From positions 716,279-780,278 of the forward strand of contig OY843611.1 of the NCBI GenBank assembly GCA_963692995.1: a stretch of DNA of 64,000 nucleotides, in the 5' to 3' direction. A program made the position numbers and the translations under genes. Below are positions 6,849 to 46,077 of the stretch, piece after piece. The notes under the pieces were generated by a model. That model was not told the origin of the DNA, did not search any database, and saw only the letters and a program-made list of their open reading frames with translations. This DNA is from Dehalococcoidia bacterium. GTDB lineage: Bacteria > Chloroflexota > Dehalococcoidia > Lucifugimonadales > UBA3495. Every line of letters starts with the position of its first letter. The first letter of the stretch is position 1.

Positions 6849-7187
6849 CTATAGCACAAAAGAGACGGCGATCAGGGCAACCAGCAGGATACCGGAAAAG
6901 ATGCCGATGCGTCGCAGCTCCGATCCGACGTGATTGTAGGCTGCCGGGCGCTGCAACCGCCGTCCCTGGGGTTGTCTGATTGGTTGGGCGCGCGGGGCAG
7001 CAGCTGTTGTCAGCTCCGCCGCCGCGGTTGTCGCCGGGGCTCCGGGGACGGCATCGGTGGCCGGGGCATCATCGACCGCCACCGCCGACGCCCCGTTGGT
7101 CCGGGGCGACGTACTGCGGTTCGCGTTGCCGCGCCGGCGACGCAGGTTGCTCTGGCGGGAAGCCACTCGTTTGCCTTTGCTAGGCAT
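6849..7187 (-). CDS. Small basic protein with a C-terminal transmembrane helix
   Basis: GGAGG RBS upstream. Ends ELRRIGIFSGILLVALIAVSFVL. Confidence 0.7.
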   Translation of the reverse strand: MPSKGKRVASRQSNLRRRRGNANRSTSPRTNGASAVAVDDAPATDAVPGAPATTAAAELTTAAAPRAQPIRQPQGRRLQRPAAYNHVGSELRRIGIFSGILLVALIAVSFVL

Positions 7188-7367
7188 AGCCCACCTCCAA
7201 ACGCCGCGGCGACAATCGCGCGCTGTCGGCGTACTGATAAGCCTGTTGTTGTCGGGAACGCCCCGGTAGGGCGGTTCGCTCTCTCCCTTCCATCATACCA
7301 GCAAACGCGCCGGAGTTGACCCTGCATCACCGGCGGGTTTAGGCAACTAGCGGGGATTCCACGGCGG

Positions 7368-8141
7368 CTATTCGGCCAGCAGGTCGTTGAGCCGGGCTTC
7401 GATCAAGTCCACGCCGCGGGCGCCGGCGCTGCGGTAGGCAATGCGGCCCGCTTTGTCCAGAAACACGTAGCTGGGTACGCCCTGTATGCCGTACGCAGAG
7501 GCCAATTGAGCTTGCTCATCGTAAATGTTGGGGAAGGTCAGTTGGTTGCGTTCTACGAAAGCGATAGTGTCGGCTTCCGTGGTCCTGAACTGGGACACGC
7601 CGATGACGTTGATGCCGGCAGCCTCGAACTTCTCGCGGTACCGCTCTGCTACAACGGGCAACTCCCGTTGACAGTGTGGTCACCAGGGCGCCCAGAAAGC
7701 GAGCAGGGTCGGGGCGCCCATGGTGTCCGCCAGTAGCAGGTCGGTGCCATCAAGCAGGCTGGCCTGGAAGGGGATGGACGGCTCGCGTTCGCTCGCTTCG
7801 GCTTGTGTCGGCAGAGGGCGTGGGGTGTAGGTGGGCCGAAGGGAGGCAGTCGGCGCCGGAGTATCGGTCGGCGGAGCGGCGTCAGTGAGCGGCTGGGGCG
7901 TGAGCATGGCCGTTGGTGCGGGAGGTTCAGTGGGTTCCGCCGTGGGCAGCAAAAGCTGTATGGTTGCCGGGTAGTCCGGCGTCGCCGCCGGCTCGGCGGG
8001 AGCGGCACAGCCGACCAGAATCACGCCGAGGGCCCAGACCAGAGCGAGCCAGGCGCCGGATGAGGATTCCAATCCTCCCGATCCGGACGGACGGGCCGGG
8101 CCAGCAGGACGGGGGCTGAATGGGTTGCGGGGCCAAATCAT
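7368..8141 (-). CDS. TlpA/ResA-like thioredoxin-fold lipoprotein, predicted selenoprotein (UGA=Sec at 7680-7682)
   Basis: ORFs 7680..8141 and 7368..7661 are in one frame joined by TGA, reading FWAPW-U-PHC-QRELP. Lipobox LVGC, cis-Pro GVPS and a downstream SECIS-like hairpin are present. selB is in the window. Confidence 0.9.
7652..7670 (-). promoter_or_regulatory. Putative bacterial SECIS element
   Basis: On the minus strand CAACGGG-AGUUG-CCCGUUG, starting 9 nt after the UGA. The apical loop is 16 nt from the UGA and carries a GU. Confidence 0.75.
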
Positions 8142-8186
8142 TGCAAAACTACACTAGCATACTTTACAAAAGTACACTAGCATACC
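8141..8186. repeat. 23-bp near-perfect tandem direct repeat in the divergent promoter region between the selenoprotein gene and htpX
   Basis: ttgcaaaactacactagcatact / ttacaaaagtacactagcatacc. Each unit gives TG-C-TAGTGT (extended -10-like) on the minus strand. Confidence 0.8.
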
Positions 8187-8313
8187 TTGCTTGCCGGCGC
8201 ATCGGCAGTCTGTCGGCGCGCCAGGGGCGGTGGCGTCAATTCAGTCGTCTCGGCGCGGGTGGTAAAATGGTGTGAAGACTTGACAACTTACCCAGCCCTC
8301 GGGAGCGACGGCT

Positions 8314-9237
8314 ATGAACACGATAAAGACTTTCTTCCTGCTGATGGCGCTGACCGGGCTATTGCTGCTCATCGGCGCGGCAATCGGTGGTCAGGCCGGC
8401 ATAATCATCGCCGTAGTTATTGCGCTTGCGCTGAATTTCGGGGCCTACTGGTTCAGTGACAAGATCGCCCTCAGTATGGCCCACGCCCGCCAGATCACTC
8501 AGGAAGAGGACCCAGAGCTGTTCAAGTTGGTGGCGGAACAGGCCCAACTGGCCAACATGCCTATGCCCAAAGTGTACGAAATCGACACCGACGCCCCCAA
8601 CGCCTTTGCCACGGGACGTAACCCGCAGAACGCCACCGTCGCCGTTACGGCCGGCATCCGCCGCATCCTGACGCGGGAGGAACTGGCCGGCGTAATGGCC
8701 CACGAAATGGCCCATGTGGGCAACCGCGACACGCTCATCATGGCCATCGTCGCCACCATCGCCGGCGCCATTTCCATGCTGGCGTTCATGGCGCAAATCG
8801 CCGCCATCTTCGGCAGCTTCGGCGGCCACCATGACGAGGATGAGGGTGGCGGCGGCAATATATTCAGCCTGCTCATCATCGCCATCATCATGCCCATAGC
8901 GGCGACTATCATCCGAATGGCCATTTCCCGCGCCCGCGAGTTCCAGGCCGACCAGACCGGGGCGCACAACTGCGGCAACCCGGAGGCCCTGGCCCGCGCG
9001 CTGGAAAAGCTGGAGATTGGCTCGGAAATCCGCCCGATGAAGGTGAACGAGGCCGCCTCGCACTTGTTCATCGTCAACCCGCTCAGCGGGCGGGCCATGG
9101 CCCGGCTGTTCTCCACGCACCCGCCTACTGAGGAACGGGTTCGCCGCCTGCGGGAGATGAACGTCCGCCCCAACTACGGCAGCAGCGACAGCTCCAGCTA
9201 CGATATGACGGGCAGCAACGACCGGCCTAACTTCTAA
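8314..9237 (+). CDS. htpX: Zinc metalloprotease HtpX (M48)
   Basis: PNAFATGR, HEMAH, SRAREFQAD and FSTHPP motifs. Confidence 0.97.
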   Translation: MNTIKTFFLLMALTGLLLLIGAAIGGQAGIIIAVVIALALNFGAYWFSDKIALSMAHARQITQEEDPELFKLVAEQAQLANMPMPKVYEIDTDAPNAFATGRNPQNATVAVTAGIRRILTREELAGVMAHEMAHVGNRDTLIMAIVATIAGAISMLAFMAQIAAIFGSFGGHHDEDEGGGGNIFSLLIIAIIMPIAATIIRMAISRAREFQADQTGAHNCGNPEALARALEKLEIGSEIRPMKVNEAASHLFIVNPLSGRAMARLFSTHPPTEERVRRLREMNVRPNYGSSDSSSYDMTGSNDRPNF

Positions 9238-9270
9238 CGCTTTTTGTCGCTGTGTTGCCGGCAGGCAGCC

Positions 9271-10083
9271 ATGATACATAAAAAGGCCGACCCCAAAGCC
9301 GTCACGGTGGCGCGGGCGGTGCAGGAACAAGCGCCGAACGACGCCGTTATCGTCCTGTTCGGCTCTCGCGCCCGCGGCGATTACCACGAGCGTTCCGACA
9401 TCGACCTGATGATGCTGGTGCCCGACCGGGACGCCAGCGGCCACGATGCGTGGGCGGCCGCTTCCCGTACCGCGCGCGCTGTCGCCGAGCGGGAGTATGG
9501 CCGCCCGGTGGCAGTGGACGTTTTGCAGATTGACCACCCCCGCTTTCGCCGGGGCCGCCGCGCCGTCAATCACGTCGCTTACGACATCATCAGGGATGGT
9601 ATCCCCATGACCCAAATCCCGTTCTCGGCCATCGACCCCGACGCCCGCGATGACGATGGCTACCCGGATAACTGGCCCGACATCAGCGAACGGCTCAAAG
9701 ACGCTTTGGATTCATTTCGTCATATGCGCTATGACTTGGCCGACGGCGCCGAAAAATATCTGGGGCGCAACGGCCAGGAAGCCCTGGAACACTGCTACAA
9801 AGCCCTGATCTCAGCCCTCGGCGTAGCCTACCCCCGCACCCACGACCTGCGGGAACTGGAAGCGCAACTCGACCAACTTAGCGAAAGGCACGGTCTCCAC
9901 ATCCCGCCGTGCCTGGACTGGCTGGAAGGTTTCTATGGAGGAAAGCGTTACGACCCGCCCGGGCCCATCCCAATGGAACCTCAAGCGTTCTTTGAGCAAG
10001 TGGAACAAGTCAAAGACGCCATCATAGCCCGCGTCCACGAAATCACCGGCACGTCCGAAGCTGACCTGTACCCCGACCGATAA
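9271..10083 (+). CDS. Fused minimal nucleotidyltransferase (MNT)-HEPN domain protein
   Basis: LFGSRARGD...SDIDL (MNT), followed by QEALEHCYKA, PRTHDL and KRY (HEPN). Confidence 0.85.
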   Translation: MIHKKADPKAVTVARAVQEQAPNDAVIVLFGSRARGDYHERSDIDLMMLVPDRDASGHDAWAAASRTARAVAEREYGRPVAVDVLQIDHPRFRRGRRAVNHVAYDIIRDGIPMTQIPFSAIDPDARDDDGYPDNWPDISERLKDALDSFRHMRYDLADGAEKYLGRNGQEALEHCYKALISALGVAYPRTHDLRELEAQLDQLSERHGLHIPPCLDWLEGFYGGKRYDPPGPIPMEPQAFFEQVEQVKDAIIARVHEITGTSEADLYPDR

Positions 10084-11386: not shown

Positions 11387-12280
11387 GTGACGAAGCAATT
11401 GCCGCAACGGCAAGCCTTCATCGGCGTTGGCGCCATGGGCAGCCTGATGGGGGGCTGCCTGCTGGACGCCGGCGTTGACCTGGCGGTTTTCGACATCAGG
11501 CGGGAAGCGGCGGAACCGCTGCTGGAGCGCGGCGCGCGTTGGGCCGCCAGCGCGGAGGACGCGGCGCGGGGCCGCGAAATTGTATGGGCGTCATTGCCGG
11601 GCCCGGCGCAGGTGGAATCGGCGCTGCTGGGCGACGAGGCCGCCGTCCTGGCGGCGATGGCCGACGGCGCGGTTCTGGTGGACACCACCACCAACGATCC
11701 GGAGGTGGCCCGGCGAGTGGCCGCCGCTTGCGGCAATCGGGGGCTGGCCATGCTGGACGCCCCGGTGAGCGGCCGGCCACCGACGATGACAATGATGGTG
11801 GGGGGCGAGCGGGCAGTGTTCGAGCGGACGCGGCCGGCGCTGGACACCGTCGCCGCGCAGGTATTCTACGTCGGGCCGGCCGGCGCCGGCTGCGTCGCCA
11901 AGCTGGCCACGCAGTATATGGGCTACACCAACCTGATTGCCGCCATCGAAGGAATGTTGATTGGCAAACTCGGCGGGGTTGACCCGGCGGTTCTGGCGGA
12001 AATTGTCCCGGTAAGCGCGGGGGCGAGCCGGGCTTTCAACGCGATACCCAACAGCATCCTGAACCGCTCTTTTCAAGCCGGCGGAACATTGGACATCGTA
12101 GCCAAGGACGTGGCGCTGGCTTGCGCTCTGGCAGAGCGATTGGGTGCGCCGGCGGATACCGGGTCGGTGGCGGATGCGCTGTACCGGGCCGCGCAGTCGG
12201 CAGGATGGGGCAGTGAGGGCTACCCGATAGTGGCGCAGGTACTGGAGCGGTTGGCGGGCGTCGAGTTGGGTGACGAGTAA
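11387..12280 (+). CDS. NAD(P)-dependent oxidoreductase, 3-hydroxyisobutyrate dehydrogenase family
   Basis: FIGVGAMG, LDAPVSG, MVGG, catalytic K in VAKL, and KD motif. Confidence 0.92.
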   Translation: MTKQLPQRQAFIGVGAMGSLMGGCLLDAGVDLAVFDIRREAAEPLLERGARWAASAEDAARGREIVWASLPGPAQVESALLGDEAAVLAAMADGAVLVDTTTNDPEVARRVAAACGNRGLAMLDAPVSGRPPTMTMMVGGERAVFERTRPALDTVAAQVFYVGPAGAGCVAKLATQYMGYTNLIAAIEGMLIGKLGGVDPAVLAEIVPVSAGASRAFNAIPNSILNRSFQAGGTLDIVAKDVALACALAERLGAPADTGSVADALYRAAQSAGWGSEGYPIVAQVLERLAGVELGDE

Positions 12281-12287
12281 GGCCGCT

Positions 12288-12692
12288 TTAGGGAGCCGGC
12301 GAACTGCCGTTGGGTTCGCCGGACAGGATTCTGGCGATTTCCGGCGGCAACTCCACCCCATGTTCCGCCAGCGCTTTGCTGATGCGCTCGCGCTCTTCCC
12401 GGCGTCCTTCCCGGCGTCCTCGCTCGGCAACCCTTTTCTCGACGGCTTCTTTGGCGGCGAACCACATCTGTAAAACTCCGTAAAGCGCGAGGGTAGTGGG
12501 GAACAGTAGCAGCGTCGCTAATATTATCACGCCGTCGTCCTGGTCCGTCAGATCTTTGAGGAACCCGATAATCCAGAGTCCGGCGCCGGATTGGCAACGG
12601 CTGATTGTCACCGCAATCGCCATACTGACGGTTATTGACAGTGAACCGTCGATGAATCTCCAGAGTGACCGGTCGCTCTCGCTGGTTTCCAT
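12288..12692 (-). CDS. Hypothetical membrane protein with an ERGRREGRREE charged tail
   Basis: Two hydrophobic segments and a 12-bp internal repeat. Convergent with the upstream operon. Confidence 0.6.
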   Translation of the reverse strand: METSESDRSLWRFIDGSLSITVSMAIAVTISRCQSGAGLWIIGFLKDLTDQDDGVIILATLLLFPTTLALYGVLQMWFAAKEAVEKRVAERGRREGRREERERISKALAEHGVELPPEIARILSGEPNGSSPAP

Positions 12693-12885
12693 TTTATCAT
12701 CCGCTTTAGCCCGATGCTCTGGCTACCGTATCACGATGCAGGGCCGAGCGCCTGTTTAGTATCGCGCCGGCTCGTGCCGGTTAAGCAATACGTGCTGGAG
12801 GCTCATCTCCTTGGCCGGTGTGGTACTATGGCGAGGCACATTCAGGCAGCCGCACCGGAGTTGCGCCGGCGCCCGGAGGGAGAAC

Positions 12886-14262
12886 ATGGCGATTGCGTTC
12901 CAGCCCAGCGCTTACAGCGACCTGGTTGACCAGGAAAACGGCATGGTCAGCCGGGAGATATTCGTCAACCCCGACATCTATGCCGAGGAGCAGGAGCGGA
13001 TTTTCACCCGCGCCTGGCTGTTCGTCGGCCACGAAAGTCAGGTTGCCAAGCCCGGCGACTTTTTCGTGTCAGCCATGGGCGAGGAATCGGTCATCCTTTG
13101 CCGCGATCGGCAGGGCGAGATCCACGTCTTTCTGAACTCCTGTATGCACCGGGGGATGAAGGTTTGTCGTTACGATGAGGGCAACACGCCCATTTTCACC
13201 TGCCCCTACCACGGCTGGAGCTTCGCGACTGACGGCGCGCTGGTGGGCGTGCCCTTCTACAAGGACGCCTATCACGAGGAGCTGGACAAATCGCAGTGGG
13301 GCCTGATCCGTGTGCCCCGGATGATCAACTACAAGGGCGGCATTTGGGCGACCTGGGATCCCAACGCGCCGGATTTCCTGGAATACATCGGGGGATTCCG
13401 CACCTACCTGGACATCCTGTTTGACGGATGGGACGGCGCCGAGGGCGGCACCGAGATCATTGGTGGCATCGAGAAGTGGATGGTGCCCAGCAACTGGAAA
13501 TTCCCCGCCGAGAACTTCATCGGCGACCGTTACCATAACATCAGTCACCGCTCCGTTGATCTGGTGGGCATCGGCCCGTCCGGCCAGGGACGCCGGGACA
13601 ACAGTGAGCGCGCGGGAGCCAAATCCCTGGATGTATCCTTCCCGGAACGGGGTCACGGCACCGTCATGTTCCTGCGCCCCGCCGACGCGCAGCCCGTTCC
13701 GTCCTACCAGAACGATCCTATCGTCTCCGAGTATTTCTACCAGTGCGAAATCGCGCGCAAGGAACGGCAGGGCCAGCGGTGGCGCATCTTGGCCGGGCCA
13801 GGGACCATCTTCCCCAATATGTCCTTCCTCCCCCGTCAGCCGCGCAGCATCGCAGTGTGGCATCCCCGCGGCCCGGACCGGACCGAGGTTTGGCGATGGT
13901 TTCTGGTGGACAGCTCCGCGCCGCCGGAAGTCAAAGAGTTCTTGCGCCAATACTACATCCGCTACTCCGGCCCTGCCGGGCTGACCGAGCAGGACGATAT
14001 GGAGAACTGGAACTACGCCCACGCCGCCAGCCGAGGCGCGATGGCCCGCCGTCACCATTACAACTACCAGATGGGCCTGGGCTACGCGGTCACCGATTTC
14101 GAGGACGGCGGGCTGAAGCTGGACGGCACCGTGCTGGACACCACCAAGGCCCGGGCCGGCGAGCAGAACCAGCGCGGGTTCTACAGCCGCTGGCGGGATT
14201 TCATGGCCGCGCGGAATTGGGACGAGCTGGCCACTTGGCGCAACAACGGCTCGGCCGGTTAG
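12886..14262 (+). CDS. Aromatic ring-hydroxylating (Rieske) dioxygenase, alpha subunit
   Basis: Rieske CMH...CPYH, mononuclear iron NFIGDRYH...H, and EQDDMENW. Confidence 0.96.
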   Translation: MAIAFQPSAYSDLVDQENGMVSREIFVNPDIYAEEQERIFTRAWLFVGHESQVAKPGDFFVSAMGEESVILCRDRQGEIHVFLNSCMHRGMKVCRYDEGNTPIFTCPYHGWSFATDGALVGVPFYKDAYHEELDKSQWGLIRVPRMINYKGGIWATWDPNAPDFLEYIGGFRTYLDILFDGWDGAEGGTEIIGGIEKWMVPSNWKFPAENFIGDRYHNISHRSVDLVGIGPSGQGRRDNSERAGAKSLDVSFPERGHGTVMFLRPADAQPVPSYQNDPIVSEYFYQCEIARKERQGQRWRILAGPGTIFPNMSFLPRQPRSIAVWHPRGPDRTEVWRWFLVDSSAPPEVKEFLRQYYIRYSGPAGLTEQDDMENWNYAHAASRGAMARRHHYNYQMGLGYAVTDFEDGGLKLDGTVLDTTKARAGEQNQRGFYSRWRDFMAARNWDELATWRNNGSAG

Positions 14263-14270
14263 GTAGCATC

Positions 14271-14816
14271 ATGGTAGTTGCCAATGACTCGCTGACAATG
14301 CTCCTGCTCAAGCAGGACGTGGAAGCCTTTCTGTACCACGAGGCCAACTTGCTGGATGACCGGCGCTACAAGGATTGGCTAACTCTGCTCACCGACGACG
14401 TGCGCTATTGGGTGCCCATGCGCCGCAACGTCAAGTTCGGCGAGCTGGAGCGGGAGTTCACCCGGGAAGGCCAGGACATCAACTGGTTTGACGAGGGCAA
14501 GCCAACGTTGACGCAGCGGGTCAACCAGATCCTAACCGGCGTCCACTGGGCCGAAGAACCGTTATCCCGCATCTCCCATCTGGTCACCAACGTGGAGATA
14601 CTGCGGGTTGCTCCCACGGCGGCGGACGCGGAGGAAGTATCGCTGCGCTGCCGGTTCATCATCTATCGGAACCGGGTAGAGACGGAAACGGACCTACTGG
14701 TGGGCCGGCGTGAGGACACGCTGCGTCGGGTTGACGGCGAATGGCGCATCGCCCAGCGGCAGGTATTCCTGGACCAGAACGTGCTGCTGGCGAAGAACCT
14801 GACCTTCTTTTTCTGA
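14271..14816 (+). CDS. Ring-hydroxylating dioxygenase, beta subunit (HcaF/BphE-like)
   Basis: FLYHEANLLDDRR, WAEEPLSR, GRREDTLR and NLTFFF motifs. Starts 8 bp after the alpha subunit. Confidence 0.95.
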   Translation: MVVANDSLTMLLLKQDVEAFLYHEANLLDDRRYKDWLTLLTDDVRYWVPMRRNVKFGELEREFTREGQDINWFDEGKPTLTQRVNQILTGVHWAEEPLSRISHLVTNVEILRVAPTAADAEEVSLRCRFIIYRNRVETETDLLVGRREDTLRRVDGEWRIAQRQVFLDQNVLLAKNLTFFF

Positions 14817-14819
14817 CCG

Positions 14820-14932
14820 TGTTCAGCGTCATTCCCGAGTTCAGCGTCATTCCCGCGAAAGCGGGAATCTATAATCGGGCTCAAGCCCTGATCGCCGAAT
14901 ATGTCCGGATTCCGGCGAAAGCCGGAATGACG
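14820..14932. repeat. REP-like palindrome pair (GTCATTCCCGCGAAAGCGGGAATC family) with a partial tandem unit
   Basis: gtcattcccgcgaaagcgggaatc near 14846 and inverted gattccggcgaaagccggaatgac near 14909. Confidence 0.9.
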
Positions 14933-14957
14933 GTGTCCGGATGCGCGGGTGAAATTT

Positions 14958-15161
14958 ATGGCTGACATAGTGAATTTGTTTGAGGTGGAGCCCGGCCAGA
15001 CGGTGCGGCTCTACGGCGAGGCTACCGCCGAAGTGGTTTCTAATCCCAGAGACGGGGTTTGGCTGTTCGTGCGCTACCTGACCAGTCCGGAGGACCCGGC
15101 GCAAGTGGGCGAAGAGGACATGGTCTTCGCCCAGGACGTGCTGGAACTGGTGGCCGGCTAG
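14958..15161 (+). CDS. Small acidic hypothetical protein downstream of the dioxygenase
   Basis: 67 aa with host-like codon usage and a beta-rich pattern (TAEVVSNPRDGVWLFVRY). Confidence 0.7.
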   Translation: MADIVNLFEVEPGQTVRLYGEATAEVVSNPRDGVWLFVRYLTSPEDPAQVGEEDMVFAQDVLELVAG

Positions 15162-15166
15162 CGCCC

Positions 15167-15406
15167 ATGGCAACCGCTGCTAACGGCAACGCTGCCAGTG
15201 GGCAGTTGGCGGTTCCCAGCCACGACGAAATCCTGGCGGCGTTGCGCGCCGGCTATCGGGCCATCGACGACGGTTACGGGTTCTACCCCGGGTTCGACGG
15301 TTGGCTGGAGTCGCTGGGCTACCAACGGCGGGACGATGTGGCTTGCACCTGCCCCGACGGCGGATACCGCGGGCACCTGCCGGAATGCCAGTGGGTGCGG
15401 GAGTAA
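15167..15406 (+). CDS. Small hypothetical protein with a CxC...HxxxC putative metal site
   Basis: Starts 5 bp after the previous stop. ACTCPDGGYRGHLPECQW. Confidence 0.65.
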   Translation: MATAANGNAASGQLAVPSHDEILAALRAGYRAIDDGYGFYPGFDGWLESLGYQRRDDVACTCPDGGYRGHLPECQWVRE

Positions 15407-37718: not shown

Positions 37719-37737
37719 GATTCCGACCTGCCCCCTC

Positions 37738-37946
37738 GATCATTGCGGCGCCCCCTCGTCATTCCCGTCCCCTTGGTCATTGCGACGCCCCCCCCTTGGT
37801 CATTCCCGCCCCCCTCGTCATTCCCGCGAAAGCGGGAATCCACAGGCCGGGGTTGCAACATAGTAATTTGCCGGCGTTTCTGGATTCCGGCTCAAGGCCG
37901 GAATGACGAAGGTGGGCCGGAATGACGAAGGGGGCGCCGGAATGCC
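37738..37946. repeat. Inverted pair of REP-like palindromes, each with outward tandem partial units
   Basis: Four (g/a)tcatt-led units precede gtcattcccgcgaaagcgggaatcc. ggattccggctcaaggccggaatgac is followed by two gccggaatg units. Confidence 0.9.
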
Positions 37947-38064
37947 CCCGCGACTCCGCAAGGTCGTGCCACGCCAGGTTTTGTTGACGCTCGCCGGCCC
38001 CGATGCTAACCTGCGCCACGCCATTCAGGCAGCCCCCATCGGGCCGCCTCCGGAGGGAACGGTA

Positions 38065-39156
38065 ATGAAGGCAGCAGTTTTGCGTGAAGTCAATCAGCCG
38101 GTTGTCGTTGAGGACGTGCAAGTGGACACGCCGGCGCCCCGGGAGGTACTGGTGCGCACGGGCGCGTCGGGCGTGTGCCACAGCGACCTGCACTTTGTCG
38201 AAGGTCTGTACACCACGCCCATGCCCTGCATCCTGGGCCACGAGGCCGCCGGTATCGTGGAGGCGGTGGGCGAGCAGGTCAGCTATGTCCGACCCGGCGA
38301 CTCGGTAATCATGTGTTTGTCCGTGTTCTGCGGAACCTGCGAATTTTGCACCCGAGGTCAGCCTTACCTCTGCGACCGGACGGCGGTAACGCGAAGGCGC
38401 GACGACCCGCCCCGGCTTCGCAAGGACGGCGAAGCCATCACCCAGTTTGCCCAGCTGGGTTCCTACGCCGCCGAGATGCTGGTGCACGAGAACGCGCTGG
38501 TCAAGGTGGATGGCGACATTCCCTTTCCGCAACTGGCTCTCATCGGCTGCGGCGCGACCACCGGCCTCGGCGCGGTGCTGAACACGGCCCGCGTTGAGCC
38601 GGGCAGCACGGTGGCCGTGGTGGGCTGCGGCGGCATCGGCATTCACTGCGTGCAGGCGGCGGCTCTGGCCGGCGCTCTGCGGATCATCGCCGTGGACACC
38701 ACCGAGGACAAGTTCGCCCTGGCCCGCGAGTTCGGCGCAACCGACGTCATCGACGCGACGACCGGAAACGTAGCCGAGCGCATTATGGAGCTTACCGGCG
38801 GCGGCGTGGACTATTCCTTCGAGGCCATCGGCCTGAAGCAGGCCGCCGAGGACTGCTACAACATGCTGCGTCCGGGGGGCGTCGCCACCATCATCGGCAT
38901 GGTGCCGGAAGGCGTGAAGATCGAACTGGACGCCGGCAACTTCCTGCGTCGAGGCCGCGCCATCCAGGGCTGCACCATGGGCTCCAATCGCTTCCGCACC
39001 GATATGCCCCGCTACATCGAGTTCTACAAGCAGGGCCGTCTCAAGCTGGACGAGCTGGTTACCCAGGAGCTGAAACTGTCGGAGATCAACCGGGCCTTCG
39101 CCGACATGAAAGCCCAAAGCGTGCGCCGGAGCGTGATTACCGATTTTGAGGGATAA
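38065..39156 (+). CDS. Zn-dependent alcohol dehydrogenase (class III-like MDR)
   Basis: GVCHSD, GHE, CGTCEFC...C and GCGGIG motifs. Confidence 0.95.
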   Translation: MKAAVLREVNQPVVVEDVQVDTPAPREVLVRTGASGVCHSDLHFVEGLYTTPMPCILGHEAAGIVEAVGEQVSYVRPGDSVIMCLSVFCGTCEFCTRGQPYLCDRTAVTRRRDDPPRLRKDGEAITQFAQLGSYAAEMLVHENALVKVDGDIPFPQLALIGCGATTGLGAVLNTARVEPGSTVAVVGCGGIGIHCVQAAALAGALRIIAVDTTEDKFALAREFGATDVIDATTGNVAERIMELTGGGVDYSFEAIGLKQAAEDCYNMLRPGGVATIIGMVPEGVKIELDAGNFLRRGRAIQGCTMGSNRFRTDMPRYIEFYKQGRLKLDELVTQELKLSEINRAFADMKAQSVRRSVITDFEG

Positions 39157-39195
39157 CGCAGGCGAGGCGCCGCATCGGCCGGCGCCTCGCCTGCG
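39157..39195. terminator. Strong perfect 16-bp hairpin between the adh stop and the RBS of the next gene (terminator or mRNA stabiliser)
   Basis: cgcaggcgaggcgccg-N7-cggcgcctcgcctgcg with no U-tract. Confidence 0.55.
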
Positions 39196-39207
39196 CTGGA
39201 GGGATGT

Positions 39208-39999
39208 ATGACTGGATTTGAACAGGGGTTTGCCGACACGGAGCAGGCGGCAGCGTCAACCGTCAAGTCGGCGGGGGCCGCCGTACGGGCGGCGCGTGCG
39301 CTGGAACGAGCAGCCAAGACGGGCAGCATCAACGCCATCCGGCGGTCGCAGTCGGACTTGGATTCCGCTTTGCGGGCTCTGATGCAGGAAGTTAAGAACG
39401 CAACGCAAGCTTGGCCTTTCCAGCCTGAGGAGGAAATATCTTATCTGCAAGAGCATTTTGCTGCCGAGCTGAGACAGGTGGCCGCCGGGAATGGGCTGGA
39501 CATTCACGAGCGGGATCGGCAGCTAATTGCCCACCCGTCCATTGTTAGTGTGTTGCCGGCGAGCCGGGCGGTGCGTGTCGACCGGAAGCAAGTGTCCACC
39601 ATCCGCCCCTCGCACCTGGTATCGCGGCTGTTGTCGAATCAGAACAAGCCGGCGCGGCACAACAGCGGAGCCTTTCTCGAGGCAGTGTACGCTGCGTACA
39701 AGATGCGCACCGACCACCAACTCAGGGAAGGACGGTCGCCAAGCGGCGTGGGGCCAGCGGTTCCGTTATCCGCAATTTACGAAGCCCTCACCCTGATGCC
39801 GGGAACAGGTCGAGAATACAGCCGGACGGATTTTGCCCGCGACCTGTACCGGCTGGACACGGAGGGACCGAAGGTAACTCGTAACAGAAAGCAGCTGCAT
39901 TTTCACAGCGGGCGACAAAGTACCATCGCTTTTGTAGCGCCCGACGGTCATCTCCTGACCTACCACAACATCGCCTTCTCAGAGGTGCGCGATGGATAA
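39208..39999 (+). CDS. Hypothetical protein (N-terminal helical hairpin, possible C-terminal winged helix), first gene of the ATPase trio
   Basis: GGAGG RBS. The stop overlaps the next start by 8 bp. VPLSAIYEALTL...YSRTDFARDLYRL. Confidence 0.8.
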   Translation: MTGFEQGFADTEQAAASTVKSAGAAVRAARALERAAKTGSINAIRRSQSDLDSALRALMQEVKNATQAWPFQPEEEISYLQEHFAAELRQVAAGNGLDIHERDRQLIAHPSIVSVLPASRAVRVDRKQVSTIRPSHLVSRLLSNQNKPARHNSGAFLEAVYAAYKMRTDHQLREGRSPSGVGPAVPLSAIYEALTLMPGTGREYSRTDFARDLYRLDTEGPKVTRNRKQLHFHSGRQSTIAFVAPDGHLLTYHNIAFSEVRDG

Positions 40000-40951
40000 C
40001 ACAATCTCGATACAGGAATGGGTGCAATTCATCGGCGCAGAGTACCTTGAGTCGTTCATCAGGGATGGCGGTGCATCAGTCAAATTCGCTGTTGCTGACG
40101 ATGATACGAAAAATGAGCTGGCGTTCGCACTATCCGAGCAATCCGGAAACTTGGGCTGCTCCTTTGTGAAAATCAACGCGGTGGATGCCCGGGTGCATAT
40201 GCCGCAGGATATTTTCTTTGCGATGGCCAAGCAGATGGATTGGCGTCTGTTGGCTCGCCGGGTGGTCATTACTCTGGCGGAAAGGCAGGATTATCGGGTT
40301 GCAGATGTTGCGCTATGTGGTAATGACAGCATTTACGCTGCTATTGGAGATGCCAACAGGGTGGACGCGGCAACAGTGATGCAGGAATTGCGGCCCGAGA
40401 TAGAAAATCGGATTTTTAAGAACCGGCGAATGGCGCGGGATTTCAGGGTCGCGATGACACGTATGTGTCTCCTGGAGAATGCCGCCCCTAGTGACGCGTA
40501 TGGAGGGCAATCGCTGGTTGACTGGCTGACCGGCACGAACACGAGAATCGGCAATGTGAAACACTTTTCCGTCCACACGTCAATCAACCGTACCACGGCG
40601 CGCCATTTCATCGAGTCAGCCTTGTATTGGATACGCTATGCCGGTTATGACGGCGTGGTGATACTGCTGGATAATACACGGGTTCTGCTACCGCAAAGGC
40701 CGCAAGACAGGTCAAGATTTTATACCAAGTCAATGGTTATGGATCATTACGAGTTGCTACGAGAGTTGATTGACGGCACCGACCGGCTCAGCGGAGCGTT
40801 GGTGGTAGTGGTATCGAATCCAGATTTCCTGAATGAGGATACTCGCTCCCGAGGGTTTGGCTGTTATGAGGCCTTGATGACGCGGGTAATGAATGATGTC
40901 CAGGACCGGTATCTGGCCAATCCTATGGCGTCGCTAGTTCGCCTGTCCTGA
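39992..40951 (+). CDS. BrxD/DUF2791-like P-loop protein with degenerate Walker motifs
   Basis: GGASVKFAV strand lacking GxxGxGK, VVILLDN in place of hhhhDE, YELLRELID, and GFGCYEALMTRV typical of the DUF2791 C-terminus. Confidence 0.7.
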   Translation: MDNTISIQEWVQFIGAEYLESFIRDGGASVKFAVADDDTKNELAFALSEQSGNLGCSFVKINAVDARVHMPQDIFFAMAKQMDWRLLARRVVITLAERQDYRVADVALCGNDSIYAAIGDANRVDAATVMQELRPEIENRIFKNRRMARDFRVAMTRMCLLENAAPSDAYGGQSLVDWLTGTNTRIGNVKHFSVHTSINRTTARHFIESALYWIRYAGYDGVVILLDNTRVLLPQRPQDRSRFYTKSMVMDHYELLRELIDGTDRLSGALVVVVSNPDFLNEDTRSRGFGCYEALMTRVMNDVQDRYLANPMASLVRLS

Positions 40952-40958
40952 TCCTGAT

Positions 40959-42239
40959 ATGGAGGCAAGAAGTATGGCGCTGAACCCGGATCACCTGGAC
41001 CCTTTCCAGTGCCGTCAGGCGGTGGAGGCTCTCAGAAATGGCGTTCCTAACCGGGCGGCGGTGGAAATTCTGGGTTGTAACCGCCCATCGGTAGAGAGCA
41101 AGTTCGACGAGTTGCTGCTGCAATCTATTGGCACGGAAGCGCTGCCGGAAGGCGCTTTGGGGATGCTGGTGTCCGGAGATTTTGGTTCCGGGAAATCGCA
41201 CCTGCTTTCTTACCTGGAGCACCGGGCTTTGGCAGAGGGATTTGTATGCAGCCGGGTAGCGATAAGCAAGGAGACGCCGCTGTATGACTTGGGCAAGGTT
41301 TTCGCATCGGCGATGCAACACGCGCAGTTGCCGGGACGAACGGGCCAACTAATGGAGGAGATAGGCGACAAAATCAATGCTCGAACCCCGGAGTATGACC
41401 GTTTCTCCCGTTGGCTTAATGTCGGGGAAAACGGTTTGCACGCTTATTTCCCGGCGACAATGATGATTTACGAGCGTTCCGGCGACCGGGATCTCCAGAG
41501 TGAGATTGAATCCTTTTGGGCAGGGGAGCGTATTGCGGCAGCTAGGGTAAGGAATGGGCTAAAGCTTATTAGCCAGCACGGCAGTTTTAACTTTCAGGCT
41601 CCCACCGCCCGCGACCTGCCACCTCAGAGGCTACGTTTTGCAACAGAATTGATAAAGGGCGTCGGCTATAAAGGATGGGTAGTGTTGCTGGACGAGCTAG
41701 AGCTGGTAGGCTCTTACAGCCTGCTGCAAAGGGCAAGGTCATATGCCGAGCTGGGCCGGTGGCTGGGCAAGACTGCCGATGATGCGCAATATCCGGGGTT
41801 AATAGCTGTAGGCACATTTACTCTGGGATTCGCGGCATCGGTGCTGGGGCCTTTCGGCAAAGACGATAAGACTGTCGCGCCGAATCGGTTGCGGGAGCGT
41901 AACGCAATGGCGGAAGCGGACTGGGCAGAGGCGGCCATTAACGCTTTGGAAGGGGATGGCATCCTGCTAGATCCGCCCGGCGAAGTGGAGTTGCAGAATA
42001 CTCTGGAAAAGTTGCGGCTACTATACCAGCAGGCGTATGGATGGGATACGCCGGCCCTCACTGCCGAACTGGACGGGGCGGCTTATCAGAACACGATGCG
42101 CTATAAAGTACGGGCCTGCATTAATGAATGGGATTTGCGGCGTATCTACCCGGATGCCCAGCCGGAAACGGAAGGCCGAGAGTTCGAGCATCGCTACCAG
42201 GAAATGCCGGAGATGGAGCAGGAAACAAAAGATGATTAG
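40959..42239 (+). CDS. BrxD/DUF2791-like P-loop ATPase with intact motifs
   Basis: VEALRNGVP N-terminal signature, GDFGSGKSH Walker A, ISKETPL, and GWVVLLDELE Walker B. Confidence 0.85.
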   Translation: MEARSMALNPDHLDPFQCRQAVEALRNGVPNRAAVEILGCNRPSVESKFDELLLQSIGTEALPEGALGMLVSGDFGSGKSHLLSYLEHRALAEGFVCSRVAISKETPLYDLGKVFASAMQHAQLPGRTGQLMEEIGDKINARTPEYDRFSRWLNVGENGLHAYFPATMMIYERSGDRDLQSEIESFWAGERIAAARVRNGLKLISQHGSFNFQAPTARDLPPQRLRFATELIKGVGYKGWVVLLDELELVGSYSLLQRARSYAELGRWLGKTADDAQYPGLIAVGTFTLGFAASVLGPFGKDDKTVAPNRLRERNAMAEADWAEAAINALEGDGILLDPPGEVELQNTLEKLRLLYQQAYGWDTPALTAELDGAAYQNTMRYKVRACINEWDLRRIYPDAQPETEGREFEHRYQEMPEMEQETKDD

Positions 42240-42242
42240 GGG

Positions 42243-42274
42243 TTGCCATGTACGTTATCGGCACCGCCGGCCAT
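42243..42274 (+). repeat. 32-bp direct repeat, a copy of the selB translation start (second copy 42950-42981)
   Basis: ttgccatgtacgttatcggcaccgccggccat is identical at both positions. Confidence 0.97.
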
Positions 42275-42352
42275 TGTGTAGCACACAATGGCCGAATGGC
42301 TCGGCTGTTTCGCCCGAAAAGGTGTTTTCCTACGGAGATGGAAGCGATGGGC

Positions 42353-42646
42353 ATGACAAACCACGAAACAATACTGGCTATTCCCGATAATGACGACTGG
42401 CAAAGCCGCATCGTCAAAACTCCCGGCATTCTGGCCGGCAAGCCTTGCATCAGGGGAACGCGCATCTCCGTGGAATTGGTGGATGAACTGCTCCGCGGCG
42501 GGCGTAGCCCGGAAGACATCCGGCGTTGCCATTTCTCCCATATATCGCTGGATGATATTGAGGCTTGCCGGCAGTATGCCGCTACCGGCGCCAAACTCTC
42601 CGACTTCACCTGGCGGGACCTGTACGGCGACGAAGATGACGACTGA
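42353..42646 (+). CDS. DUF433 family antitoxin (VapB45-like)
   Basis: RIVKTPGILAGKPCIRGTRISV and ISLDDIEAC motifs. Confidence 0.92.
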   Translation: MTNHETILAIPDNDDWQSRIVKTPGILAGKPCIRGTRISVELVDELLRGGRSPEDIRRCHFSHISLDDIEACRQYAATGAKLSDFTWRDLYGDEDDD

Positions 42647-42932
42647 GCGCACGGCTGCCCTGCGGATACTGGCTGACGAAAATATGCCGGACCCAGACGT
42701 TCTCGCCGTTGCCACCGGCGAAAACCGTCTGCTTGCCACGCAAGATAAAGACTTCGGTGATATTGTGGTTAACCGGAACCGGCCGGCGCCGTATGGCGTG
42801 GTTCTATTCCGGTTGCATAATGACATTGCCGATACCGACCGGTTCCGTCTGATGGCCGGCATTTTGAATGCGCGTAACAGCTGGGGCCCCGGAATATGGG
42901 CTGTCAGCATCCGTCATCCCACGACTTCCTGA
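42636..42932 (+). pseudogene. DUF5615 PIN-like toxin (VapC45-like), apparently with an in-frame internal deletion
   Basis: LRILADENMP joins directly to DPDVL...RLLATQDKDFG. The helix/GHD segment usually between them is absent. Confidence 0.7.
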
Positions 42933-42954
42933 AACTAACTCGCTGGAAATTGCC

Positions 42955-44820
42955 ATGTACGTTATCGGCACCGCCGGCCATGTTGACCACGGCAAATCCA
43001 CCTTGGTCAAGGCCCTGACCGACATTGATCCCGACCGCCTCCCCGAGGAGAAGGAACGGGAGATGACCGTTGACTTGGGTTTTGCCTGGATGACCCTTCC
43101 CAGCGGGCGGGAGGTCAGCATCGTTGATGTGCCGGGCCACGAGCGGTTCATCAAGAATATGCTGGCCGGCGTCGGCGCTATCGACCTGGCCATGCTCATC
43201 GTCGCCGCGGACGAGAGCGTGATGCAGCAGACCCGCGAGCACCTGGCAATCCTGGACCTGCTGCGCATCCGCCGGGGGCTGGTGGTAGTCACCAAGACTG
43301 ACCTGGTTGACGAGGAGCTGGTGGAACTGGTCAAGGCCGAGGTTGAGGACGCGCTGGAAGGCACGACCTTCGCGGGCTGCACGATGGTCGCGGTTTCCGC
43401 GTACACCGGCGCCGGGCTGGACGAACTTAAGGCTGCTATCGATGGCATCCTTGACGACACTGAGACGCGCCGCGATTTGGGCCGTCCACGCCTGCCCGTT
43501 GATCGTTGTTTCACCGTCAGCGGGTTCGGCACAGTGGTGACGGGGACGCTGATCGACGGCTCCGTTGCGGTGGGTCAGCAGGTTGAGTTGTCTCCCTCCG
43601 GACGACAGGCCCGCATCCGGGGGTTGCAGAGCCATAAGTCACGCTTGAATGCCGCCACGCCGGGGGTGCGCCTGGCGCTGAACCTGTCGGGCATCTCGCG
43701 GGGCGACGTGCCACGAGGCGAGGTGCTGACCAATCCGGGCTGGCTGCAACCCACCCGCCGCTTTGACGCCAACCTGCGGATGGTGAAGGGCGCGCCCCAC
43801 GCCTTGAAGCACAACGAGGGCATAACTTTCCACCTGTTCACCAGCGAGACCACTGGACGAGTGCGCCTGCTGGACGCCGACCGCCTGCAACCGGGCAGCG
43901 AGGGCTGGGTGCAGGTGCTGCTGGATGAACCGCTGCCCATGGTGAAAGGGGACTTTTTCGTGCTGCGGTCATCGGAGGATACCCTCGGCGGCGGGCAGGT
44001 CGCCGACCCCAACCCGCGTCGCCGCCATCGCCGCTTTGCGCCGGAAGTGCTGGAACGACTCACTATGCTGGACGCCGGCGCCAGCGAGGACGTCATCCTG
44101 ACCATCGCGGAGCAGATGGGACCGTGCGACCTCCGTACGCTGTCGCAGCGTTCCAATCTGTCGGAAGAGGAAATCCTGGAAAGGCTCGGCGTCCTGGTCG
44201 GAGACGGTGCAGCGGTGGTGTTGGGCGAGATGGGCGCCCAGGCCGATGCCGTGGCCTACTCCCGTCGTGGCTGGGACATCGTGCAAAACCAGGCCCAGGT
44301 GGCGTTGCAGGCGTACCATAACCAGTATCCGGTGCGTCGGGGCGCTCCTCCCCAGGAACTGCGCAGCCGCTTGGGGGTGTCGCAGCCGGTCTATCTGCGG
44401 GCGGCGGCCCGGCTGGAAGAGGAAGGGGTGATTGCCGACGACGGCGGGCTGGTGCGCACGCCCGACCACACAATTGCCCTGAATGACCGCCAGCAACGGG
44501 AAATCGCCGACTATCTGGCCGCGCTGGCGGCGGAACCCTGGTCGCCGCCCACCGACCGCCCGGTGGACCCGGAACTGCTGGCCCATTTGCAGGAACGGGG
44601 CGACGTGGTGAAGGTCAACGAAACGGTCGTGTTCACCACGGCGGCCTACGAGGACATGGTGGGGCGCATCGTGGCGCACCTTCAAGAGAAAGGCAGCGTG
44701 ACCGTGGCCGACGCTAGATCTATTTTCGACACCAGCCGGAAATACGTGCTGCCCCTGCTGGAATACCTGGACCAGCAGCGCGTCACCCGGCGGGTTGGCG
44801 ACGAACGGGTGCTGCGCTAG
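42955..44820 (+). CDS. selB: Selenocysteine-specific elongation factor
   Basis: GTAGHVDHGKS, DVPGHERF, TKTD and C-terminal SRKYVLPLLEYLD...RVGDER motifs. Confidence 0.98.
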   Translation: MYVIGTAGHVDHGKSTLVKALTDIDPDRLPEEKEREMTVDLGFAWMTLPSGREVSIVDVPGHERFIKNMLAGVGAIDLAMLIVAADESVMQQTREHLAILDLLRIRRGLVVVTKTDLVDEELVELVKAEVEDALEGTTFAGCTMVAVSAYTGAGLDELKAAIDGILDDTETRRDLGRPRLPVDRCFTVSGFGTVVTGTLIDGSVAVGQQVELSPSGRQARIRGLQSHKSRLNAATPGVRLALNLSGISRGDVPRGEVLTNPGWLQPTRRFDANLRMVKGAPHALKHNEGITFHLFTSETTGRVRLLDADRLQPGSEGWVQVLLDEPLPMVKGDFFVLRSSEDTLGGGQVADPNPRRRHRRFAPEVLERLTMLDAGASEDVILTIAEQMGPCDLRTLSQRSNLSEEEILERLGVLVGDGAAVVLGEMGAQADAVAYSRRGWDIVQNQAQVALQAYHNQYPVRRGAPPQELRSRLGVSQPVYLRAAARLEEEGVIADDGGLVRTPDHTIALNDRQQREIADYLAALAAEPWSPPTDRPVDPELLAHLQERGDVVKVNETVVFTTAAYEDMVGRIVAHLQEKGSVTVADARSIFDTSRKYVLPLLEYLDQQRVTRRVGDERVLR

Positions 44821-44850
44821 CGGACCTGAGCCGTCGGCCGCTGACTGCAA

Positions 44851-46077
44851 ATGGCCCTGGACTTCGGCCAAACCGCCCTTCAGTTGATGACCGCCATGGG
44901 AGACGTGGCGGCCACCACGCGCGCGCGACGGCAGCGTTTCGCCGACACGTTGGATCGCGCCCGTGCAATATCCCCAACCGAGGCTGCCGCGCGTACCGCA
45001 AGGGCCGGCCGTCGTCCCTTCATCGCGGCGCGCACCGACGACGAGGGGCTTCTGGCCAGCATACCGCCGTCGGAGGCGCCGTCCGACTGGTCGGCCCTCT
45101 CCGTGGACGGCTCGCATATCGACGTGGACCGGCACCTGCCCCTGCGCTGTTACCTGATTAACCTGGGCGGCTGCGCCCTCACCTACGGCGCGATCCCCGA
45201 TTGCCAATTGTTCAGCGAGCCGACGCTGGCGCTGGGCGACGCTGATCTCTACCTTCGCCCGGCCGACGGCTCGCTGGATGAGACGCCGATAGCGGGCCAA
45301 CTGCTGGGCGCGTTGCGCACCGTGCGCGAGGTGGAGCGGCTGGCCGACATGGTGGACGCGCTGCCGCCCGATTTGCCGGTGTTGGCCCTGCTGGACGGCA
45401 CCCTGGCCTTCTGGGACCTACAGCGGGGAAGCTATCCTCGGTACGTCAGCGATGCCCTGGTGAGCGAGCGGCTGCACACGGCGTTGGTCCGGTTGCGGGA
45501 GGCGTCCTACCGCGGCCGACCGGTGGTGGTGGCAGCCTACACCTCTCGTCCCCAAACCACCGAGGCGGCCGGCGCCGTGCGCGTCGGCCTGTGCGGCAGC
45601 GACGCCGCGGAGTGTACCCGGCGTTGCAGCGCGCGCCGCTCCGACCTGGCACAGTGCGACGGCGCGGCGGGTTTCAACGACCGGGAACTGTTCGACGCTT
45701 TGCTGGAACCCGGCCATCGCTCGCCTTTGTATCAGTCGGGGCGCGTGGAATCCCGGTTTGCCATGGGTTTGACGGTAGGCACGGAGTGGAGCTATTTCTT
45801 CTACTTGAACAGTGGCACGGAGATTGCCCGGGTGGAGGTGCCGGATTGGGTGGCGGACAACCGGGAGCTGCTGGCCCGCGGTCACGCCATGCTGGTCCGA
45901 CAGTGCGAGTTGGGGCTAGGCTATCCCGTGGTAATCTCCGAAGCCCACGAGCAGGCGGTGGTCAACGGCCACGATCGGGCGGAGTTTCGCCGGCTGGCTA
46001 TAATGCTGATGGAGCGGCAGGGCTTGCCGACGCCGGAATCGGCCAAGACTATATCCAAGCGGCTGCCCTGGGTCTGA
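44851..46077 (+). CDS. nurA: NurA-domain nuclease
   Basis: VDGSH, LLDGTL, ARVEVP and GYPVVISEAHEQAVV motifs. Confidence 0.85.
   Translation: MALDFGQTALQLMTAMGDVAATTRARRQRFADTLDRARAISPTEAAARTARAGRRPFIAARTDDEGLLASIPPSEAPSDWSALSVDGSHIDVDRHLPLRCYLINLGGCALTYGAIPDCQLFSEPTLALGDADLYLRPADGSLDETPIAGQLLGALRTVREVERLADMVDALPPDLPVLALLDGTLAFWDLQRGSYPRYVSDALVSERLHTALVRLREASYRGRPVVVAAYTSRPQTTEAAGAVRVGLCGSDAAECTRRCSARRSDLAQCDGAAGFNDRELFDALLEPGHRSPLYQSGRVESRFAMGLTVGTEWSYFFYLNSGTEIARVEVPDWVADNRELLARGHAMLVRQCELGLGYPVVISEAHEQAVVNGHDRAEFRRLAIMLMERQGLPTPESAKTISKRLPWV

Follow-up and report, generated by a model that had tools for sequence, protein, structure and literature searches.

Shango is composed of SngA, which carries a TerB domain, SngB, a PF10923 ATPase, and SngC, a DEAD/DEAH helicase, and protects P. 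aeruginosa against phages, according to the excerpt of its description used here (PMC10250203). In type 2 systems of the BREX (bacteriophage exclusion) group, BrxD is an AAA+ ATPase (ATPase associated with diverse cellular activities) of the ORC/Cdc6 class (ORC, origin recognition complex). It forms a dyad with BrxHI, and helicase loading has been suggested as its role (PMC12839542, also in excerpt). Here we analyse a window of 64,000 nucleotides (nt) from a Dehalococcoidia bacterium (assembly GCA_963692995.1, contig OY843611.1, positions 716,279 to 780,278 of the forward strand), in which three adjacent genes, g1, g2 and g3 (the trio), encode a protein of unnamed family and two PF10923-related proteins. 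In the clamp loader (gamma, delta and delta') and in eukaryotic ORC, which load rings or helicases on DNA, the active AAA+ subunits have catalytically dead paralogues as stable partners. The trio would in principle share this pairing of active with inactive AAA+ proteins, but a sequence relationship with g2 or g3 is undetectable beyond the AAA+ class.

The best reading of the sequences is that the trio is a relative of the ATPase-helicase modules of Shango and BREX type 2, without a name or a catalogue entry. More specifically, and with a probability of roughly 0.6, we assign it to a widespread but unnamed cassette, of which it would be a form without a helicase and whose invariant core would be g1, a catalytically dead g2 and a live g3.

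An earlier note, made from the sequence alone, had singled out three tightly coupled genes, the last two of them AT-rich, as a candidate undescribed system. The open reading frames (ORFs; Table 1) and their spacing are as it described: g1 and g2 overlap by 8 bp and a gap of 7 bp separates g2 from g3. The G+C content shows a dip over the trio, with values of 0.53-0.57 across 40000-42499 compared with 0.65-0.68 upstream (38000-38999) and 0.64-0.70 downstream (43000-45999); g1, at 0.60-0.62, lies between the dip and the flanks.

Table 1. Coordinates of features in the window and in the other loci mentioned in the text (aa, amino acids)
Locus	Feature	Position	Strand	Description
Window	g1	39208-39999	+	263-aa ORF, unnamed family
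Window	g2	39992-40951	+	319-aa ORF, putatively dead PF10923 paralogue
Window	g3	40959-42239	+	426-aa ORF, predicted active-type PF10923 ATPase
Window	Hairpin	39157-39195 (arms 39157-39172 and 39180-39195)	+	Perfect, 16 bp, GC-rich, 7-nt loop; read from sequence
Window	Insert	42243-42981	+	707 bp, repeat-bounded, DUF433 and DUF5615 (PIN-like) genes; Pfam
Window	Direct repeat	42243-42274 and 42950-42981		Perfect, 32 nt
Window	Pnkp-ADH intergenic region	37730-37944		Packed repeats
L111	Downstream ORF	6995-8344		No Pfam match
L117	Downstream ORF	5299-6672		No Pfam match
L124	Downstream ORF	12575-13912		No Pfam match
L125	Downstream ORF	8316-9896		No Pfam match
L069	TIR protein and MazF/PemK-like gene	13081-14384		Spirochaetia genome
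L073	AEP-TOTE primase-helicase	13026-15365		Soil metagenome contig
L075	AEP-TOTE primase-helicase	12751-14481		Soil metagenome contig
L016	Pnkp ligase-domain fragment	11443-11817		125 aa, genome G024
L019	SNF2-family gene copy	G000:C1:1155380-1159681 (copied segment that carries the gene)		686-aa gene
L020	SNF2-family gene copy	G000:C1:2960229-2964530 (copied segment that carries the gene)		686-aa gene

Both g2 and g3 match PF10923 (BrxC_BrxD, formerly DUF2791), with 47.9 and 61.7 bits respectively against a Pfam cut-off of 22.2, and the suggested relationship of g2 to DUF2791 is thereby upheld. Alignment confirmed the motifs given in the note: g3 carries GDFGSGKS as its Walker A and LLDE as its Walker B motif, and the corresponding positions of g2 read VADDDTK and LLDN. 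The same division runs through the homologues. GK[ST] or the Walker B DE is retained in none of 53 g2 homologues, while G-x-F-G-[SAT]-G-K-S-H-L and hhhh-D-E are retained in all 51 full-length g3 homologues, in agreement with the original assignment of an inactive and an active partner. Judged by these motifs, g2 is in all probability a long-standing catalytically inactive paralogue and g3 is predicted to be a BrxD/SngB-like, ORC/Cdc6-class AAA+ ATPase of the active type. The former P-loop of g2 (residues ~35-55), now variable, is its least conserved 15-residue window (mean top-residue frequency 0.43 versus 0.68 overall).

For both proteins the best PADLOC model is BrxD (5.4e-14 for g2 and 4.9e-14 for g3, residues 17-120 of the latter aligning with the N-terminus of the model); the SngB model scores more weakly (1.1e-4 and 2e-6 respectively). 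BrxD is also the best NCBIfam match for the two, but on the BREX_BrxD equivalog NF033438 they reach only 48.5 (g2) and 52.3 bits (g3) compared with a cut-off of 350, so they should be regarded as members of the fold and not as BrxD orthologues. No match to g2 or g3 was found in PHROGs. A profile search of solved structures with g3 and g1 gave nothing below an E value of 0.07 (BrxC-BrxB, 9zn5, was found at 0.12).

The trio is inherited as a unit and its occurrence is sparse and patchy. Homologues of g1 were found in seven of 40 other related genomes, six of these being among the 24 genomes of the same genus, and in all seven g1 is followed by g2 and g3 in the same order. A scan using one genome per species gave 52 loci, mostly from Dehalococcoidia/SAR202 together with two from Bryobacterales and three from Spirochaetia (loci carry L numbers and genomes G numbers below), and every one of the 52 has the full g1-g2-g3 in that order. 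A metagenome scan, whose query was a 10-row subfamily alignment ~30% identical to the g1 of the window and whose loci consequently sample one distant subfamily, yielded 491 coding stretches, from which 80 loci were kept. Where at least 2.4 kb could be read after g1, g2 and g3 are present in order in 49 of 50 cases; the one deviating locus, L107, has its matches to g2 and g3 within a single long reading frame, and in the near-identical L110 they are separate. Recurrence on this scale, in relatives, genomes and metagenomes, takes the arrangement beyond chance, as the original proposal of a conserved unit had supposed. In a sample of the phylum, g1 occurs in 26 of 401 genomes and 19 of 218 genera, as one copy each. 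A few copies are damaged or interrupted: in L027 (identical to L013) g3 is broken into two ORFs, and in L040 and L061 insertions of ~0.9-1.2 kb separate g2 from g3.

Comparison with Shango shows several common features. Both comprise three genes in which a non-enzymatic first protein is followed by a PF10923-type ATPase, both occur in defence islands, and in most relatives of the trio a helicase completes the cassette. In contrast to SngA, however, g1 lacks TerB-N and TerB-C; the trio has two ATPase paralogues, one of them apparently dead; and g3 scores only 62 bits on PF10923, compared with ~490-500 for genuine SngB proteins located beside related trios. A helicase of the SngC type is absent between ADH (the zinc alcohol dehydrogenase gene upstream of the trio) and selB (downstream), and no close helicase partner was found in the genome. 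We also considered g1 as a divergent TerB-C protein. This candidate was ruled out: when the g1 family was compared by hhalign with four SngA proteins the probability was 0.4%, and no TerB match was found in g1 at E<=1.

The logic of BREX type 2 is similar to that of the trio plus helicase, since BrxD, in the excerpt of its description, is a stand-alone protein without a DNA-binding domain of its own and tightly paired with a superfamily 2 (SF2) helicase. In addition to their scores on the equivalog, the differences lie in the partners. The helicases of the relatives are SNF2 or XPB-like and not Ski2/Lhr-like as is BrxHI, and the trio adds a dead paralogue and g1. The earlier note had seen no BREX partner, and this was extended to the genome: g2 and g3 are its only PF10923 proteins, with neither BrxC nor SngB, and the neighbours of the locus are ADH, DUF433/DUF5615 genes and SelB (for BREX proteins the genome-wide search covered PF10923, without PglX and PglZ). 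A check against PADLOC-DB v2.0.0 (2023), which the note had proposed, showed that no model covers g1 and that the paired cassette is not described. Nor did we find a paired live and dead BrxD-like ATPase cassette described in the literature, where the supplementary tables of the BREX survey (PMC12839542) and of the Shango papers may list such loci. What is new here is the helicase-less state and the adjacency to Shango.

To define the partners of the trio, 132 loci were classified with profiles built from the partner proteins, whose identities were confirmed by Pfam. Forty-four loci fall into an SNF2 class and five, with one further partial case, into an XPB-like class; in one other, only the start of a ~180-aa helicase N-terminal domain is seen before the end of the contig. 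An SF2 helicase gene thus lies directly 3' of the trio in 51 of the 91 classifiable loci (in 50 of them an SNF2 or XPB-like gene is seen in full or in part). Shango lies head-to-head with the trio, divergently upstream, in 24 loci, and neither partner is present, with both flanks visible, in 16, which include the clade of the window. Among the 41 loci that are not fully testable, one flank is unseen in 11 and 30 are untestable. The proposal that the trio is a stand-alone module therefore stands for these 16 loci and fails for the family in general: 75 of the 91 carry a helicase gene after the trio or a complete Shango head-to-head with it.

The commonest arrangement in the genome scan (41 of 52 loci) is g3, then an ORF of ~180 aa and then an SNF2 helicase of ~595 aa, the last two being fused in some cases. 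The ~180-aa domain belongs to no family and has no PHROGs match. Some SNF2 loci (L014 and L016) include upstream a 582-aa SWIM zinc-finger protein, which matches the PADLOC candidate PDC-S62 at 9e-19. In L016 a Pnkp ligase-domain fragment is found next to this six-gene cassette (SWIM, trio, 180-aa ORF and SNF2). Other metagenome loci have an XPB/ResIII-like or a DUF3670-SNF2 helicase after g3. No BREX component was matched among the neighbours scanned with family models.

The Shango-adjacent loci belong to the metagenome subfamily. They include a TerB-N/TerB-C protein, a canonical PF10923 ATPase and a DEAD helicase, the start of the system adjoining g1 in divergent orientation, and these loci hold three PF10923 paralogues. 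Shango is complete or partly visible in L073, L075, L076, L083, L100, L107, L110, L120, L130, L143 and L152 and in 13 shorter loci, all of which lie in a single clade of the g3 tree. The presence of a complete Shango beside the trio indicates that the trio is a separate unit and not a variant of Shango. It is also not the case, as the earlier note had allowed, that the homologues always sit within complete BREX or Shango loci: no more than the 24 of 91 are Shango-adjacent. On the g3 tree (FastTree, 104 rows, unrooted and with long-branch warnings) loci with the same type of partner cluster in clades. One change each is enough for Shango and for the XPB-like helicase, and the helicase-less state requires at least five to six changes.

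Other genes of potential interest lie beside the trio at individual loci. Co-directional ORFs of 446-527 aa without a Pfam match are present downstream of g3 in L111, L117, L124 and L125. In the first three neither a helicase nor Shango was found (the upstream side of L117 is unseen), and in L125 a TerB gene of the Shango type lies upstream; these ORFs may be alternative partners of a new type. A protein of the CAP12/Pycsar type with a TIR domain and a MazF/PemK-like gene adjoin the trio in L069, and an AEP-TOTE primase-helicase adjoins it in L073 and L075.

The window and L021-L024 group together on the g3 tree (100 support) and are all helicase-less. This group is nested in a clade of 11 rows, six of which bear SNF2 (97 support), and from this position it is most likely that the clade of the window lost its SNF2 arm. 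No helicase gene was found between ADH and selB in the window, and the SWIM partner was not found in the genome. All three ORFs are intact in the five members of the clade, at 62-80% protein identity, and the ratio of non-synonymous to synonymous substitution rates (dN/dS) is 0.065-0.25 for g1, 0.105-0.22 for g2 and 0.071-0.12 for g3. The only SNF2 relatives in the same genome are two copies of a 686-aa SNF2-family gene, 28-29% identical to the cassette helicase and without the N-terminal domain context of the latter. They lie on two segments of at least 4.3 kb that are 99.3% identical (L019 and L020), between ORFs for which Pfam gave no match; the segments are either recently duplicated or a mobile element.

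No family was found for g1 in Pfam, PADLOC, NCBIfam or PHROGs, and 41 diverse members share no common Pfam family. The family is nevertheless large: a g1 profile retrieved 872 representative clusters at E<=1e-3 and 283 at <=1e-30 (among 1.84 billion). Its named members are all 'hypothetical protein' and without a Pfam domain, and a search of the ESM Atlas with g1 similarly gave only unnamed clusters with this label. The AlphaFold2 model of g1 (41 sequences in the alignment) has a predicted local distance difference test score (pLDDT) of 90.7. Residues 4-66 form a long hairpin of helices, two further helices span 73-94 and a small beta unit of five strands occupies 100-129; the model ends in a C-terminal helix-plus-sheet domain (~150-263) that is winged-helix-like; modelled separately, this C-terminal part has a pLDDT of 82.1. 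The structural comparison of the full protein with VIA-align was swamped by generic helical hairpins (residues 1-90). The C-terminal part aligned with winged helices of RPC62, ORC/Cdc6, kleisin, histone H1/H5, forkhead and SelB, the top matches being 2xub_A (Z 6.3, root mean square deviation 3.0, 83 residues), 7a6h_P and 7qen_C (Z 6.2) and 8s0e_G (Z 5.9). The earlier description of g1 as a helical and winged-helix protein is therefore borne out by the model for the N-terminus, and for the C-terminus finds only weak matches. A coiled-coil plus winged-helix-like protein is a reasonable but unproven description of the model.

The genes upstream of g1 are ADH and Hen1-Pnkp, and those downstream are DUF433 and DUF5615 genes, selB and NurA. 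The note had placed the trio between Hen1-Pnkp and a toxin-antitoxin cassette, which is correct as an order of genes. The two neighbours do not, however, have the meaning that this suggested. In G001, the closest genome (selB 96% identical), Hen1-Pnkp is present in the same order and 93% identical even though the trio is absent, which makes it a conserved flank and not island cargo. The DUF433 and DUF5615 genes are carried on an insert bounded by direct repeats (Table 1), which duplicate the ribosome-site and start region of selB and its first 9 codons. The insert looks like a small toxin-antitoxin-like cassette, with the repeat as its target-site duplication. In L021, where the insert is absent, selB begins 9 nt after g3, and this arrangement together with the duplication points to ADH-trio-selB as the older order. 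The insert lies outside the trio and marks the old junction of g3 with selB, whose real start is at 42955 and not at 42868.

We surveyed the ADH-selB junction in genomes of the same genus (window positions 39154-42955 and loci L156, L158, L172-L174 and L183-L186). It is empty in G007, G013 and G024 (11 nt) and measures ~144 nt in G010 and G009. In G001 it holds an enzyme similar to Eco57I/MmeI (a type IIG restriction-modification enzyme) with a DUF5615 gene, in G005 a methylase-Mrr fusion with DUF3800, in G022 an McrB-like ATPase with DUF3800, and in G011 the trio together with McrBC and DUF3800. The neighbours of selB in G017 are a transposase and a GmrSD-like gene, and ADH was not found within the 12 kb read. 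These contents suggest that the junction is a core-flanked defence hotspot in which the trio is one of several alternative cargoes, and the defence-island setting proposed for the window is to this extent supported by its sister genomes.

Some smaller features of the region were also recorded. The hairpin listed in Table 1 is located between the stop codon of ADH and g1 and ends 12 nt 5' of the g1 start; between the two, GGAGGG stands 3 nt ahead of the g1 ATG. It has no T-run and is for this reason absent from the output of the terminator scan. In the promoter and terminator scan as a whole the number of sites did not exceed that in shuffled sequence. Short identical contigs from the sequencing run X8 (whose RNA label is a guess) cover parts of ADH, g1 and the DUF433 gene, which is not proof of transcription. 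In the intergenic region between Pnkp and ADH a unit of ~15-20 nt (CCCCCTCGTCATTCC and its complement) is densely repeated in both direct and inverted orientation. The ORF called from 37903 over-extends ADH, whose start is probably near 38065 (MKAAVL).

How might such a cassette function? By analogy with ORC/Cdc6 or clamp loaders, g3 and g2 might form an active/inactive AAA+ hetero-oligomer to which g1 would contribute DNA binding and bridging, and the complex would depend on ATP for recognising DNA that is invading or aberrant. In the helicase-bearing forms it could then load or activate the neighbouring helicase, as has been suggested for BrxD and BrxHI (PMC12839542, in excerpt). In the window, where the helicase arm would have been lost, the trio might work unaided, bound to DNA as a sensor or roadblock driven by ATP, or might use a helicase encoded elsewhere. 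A loader mechanism in particular is speculative. We consider it rather likely that the cassette is related to defence and, with slightly less assurance, that the trio still functions without an adjacent helicase. A bolder version, which we think unlikely, would make the trio an autonomous immune core in which the AAA+ pair and a winged-helix/coiled-coil adaptor detect foreign DNA. The former P-loop of the dead g2 would then be a fast-evolving recognition surface, helicases and Shango would be swappable output arms, and helicase-less forms would use ATP to clamp or roadblock invading DNA without a nuclease or a helicase.

A number of points weigh against reading the trio as a helicase-less member of a defence cassette. 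Support for it is computational throughout and the association with defence islands is circumstantial. Many of the loci are close kin, so that the counts overstate independence, and a tblastn search of plasmid and phage collections with g1 (a single protein query) gave no match. The paralogy of g2 and g3 follows from the fact that both match PF10923; in direct profile comparison they align weakly (hhalign probability 28.8%, over 96 columns around Walker B). For g1, the winged-helix Z scores of 5.0-6.3 are below the level that the tool takes as distinctive, and Foldseek against the PDB, with the full protein or its C-terminal part, had no match at E<=1e-3 (RepE came highest, with ~0.1-0.15). 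The 'neither' class excludes only the modelled helicase profiles, and several of its loci have co-directional neighbours without a Pfam match that are possible partners. That the helicase was lost is argued by parsimony from an unrooted tree built by a quick method, and the dN/dS values are rough because dS is saturated (~1-4).

Among the alternatives, the trio could be an orphan accessory module, a sensor or loader added to a helicase system (Shango, SNF2 or XPB-like) and inert alone, which here would either use a helicase in trans or be kept for an unrelated reason. The predominance of loci with an adjacent helicase gene or a full Shango, the way in which partner type tracks the g3 tree and the two nearly identical SNF2-family copies in the genome would all suit this explanation. 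We nonetheless find it doubtful: the SNF2 proteins of the genome are distant from the cassette helicase and lack its N-terminal context, neither SngB nor another PF10923 gene nor the SWIM partner is present, and helicase-less forms under purifying selection occur in several clades. A decaying and now functionless remnant of the five-gene SNF2 cassette, which the earlier note had raised as a danger to its own proposal, would be in keeping with the nesting of the clade of the window among SNF2-bearing rows and with the fact that g3 directly abuts the start of selB. Intact genes and low dN/dS values in all five members argue against decay, the motifs of g3 are kept, and truly damaged copies such as the split g3 and the two interrupted loci look different. 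The selection data largely refute the remnant, to which we attach very little probability.

It is also improbable that the trio serves an entirely different purpose as a facultative DNA-maintenance module (for example, in replication restart or in the partition or control of mobile elements) built on an ORC-like ATPase pair. ATPases of the ORC/Cdc6 class and winged-helix proteins are indeed typical of replication initiation, the weak structural matches include winged helices of ORC, Cdc6 and RepE, and several loci have housekeeping neighbours only. The sparse distribution, however, speaks against such a role. The hotspot otherwise holds genes of restriction type, and the trio adjoins Shango, TIR/MazF, McrBC and TOTE genes at various loci. 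Plasmid and phage collections gave no match, and no integrase or replication gene lies beside the trio in the window.

To our knowledge, ATPases of the BrxD and SngB types are among the least understood parts of their systems, and we know of no established mechanism for BREX type 2 or Shango. The cassette isolates an ATPase of this type in a minimal form, in which a predicted live subunit is accompanied by a permanently dead paralogue and a single small protein. Its helicase has apparently been swapped or removed in nature, giving SNF2, XPB-like, Shango-adjacent and helicase-less forms, all under selection, and this would provide a route for testing a loader against a sensor role. The g1 family is large and wholly unannotated, and the ADH-selB junction would be a clean hotspot, in an uncultured lineage of Dehalococcoidia, that may be useful for finding further systems.

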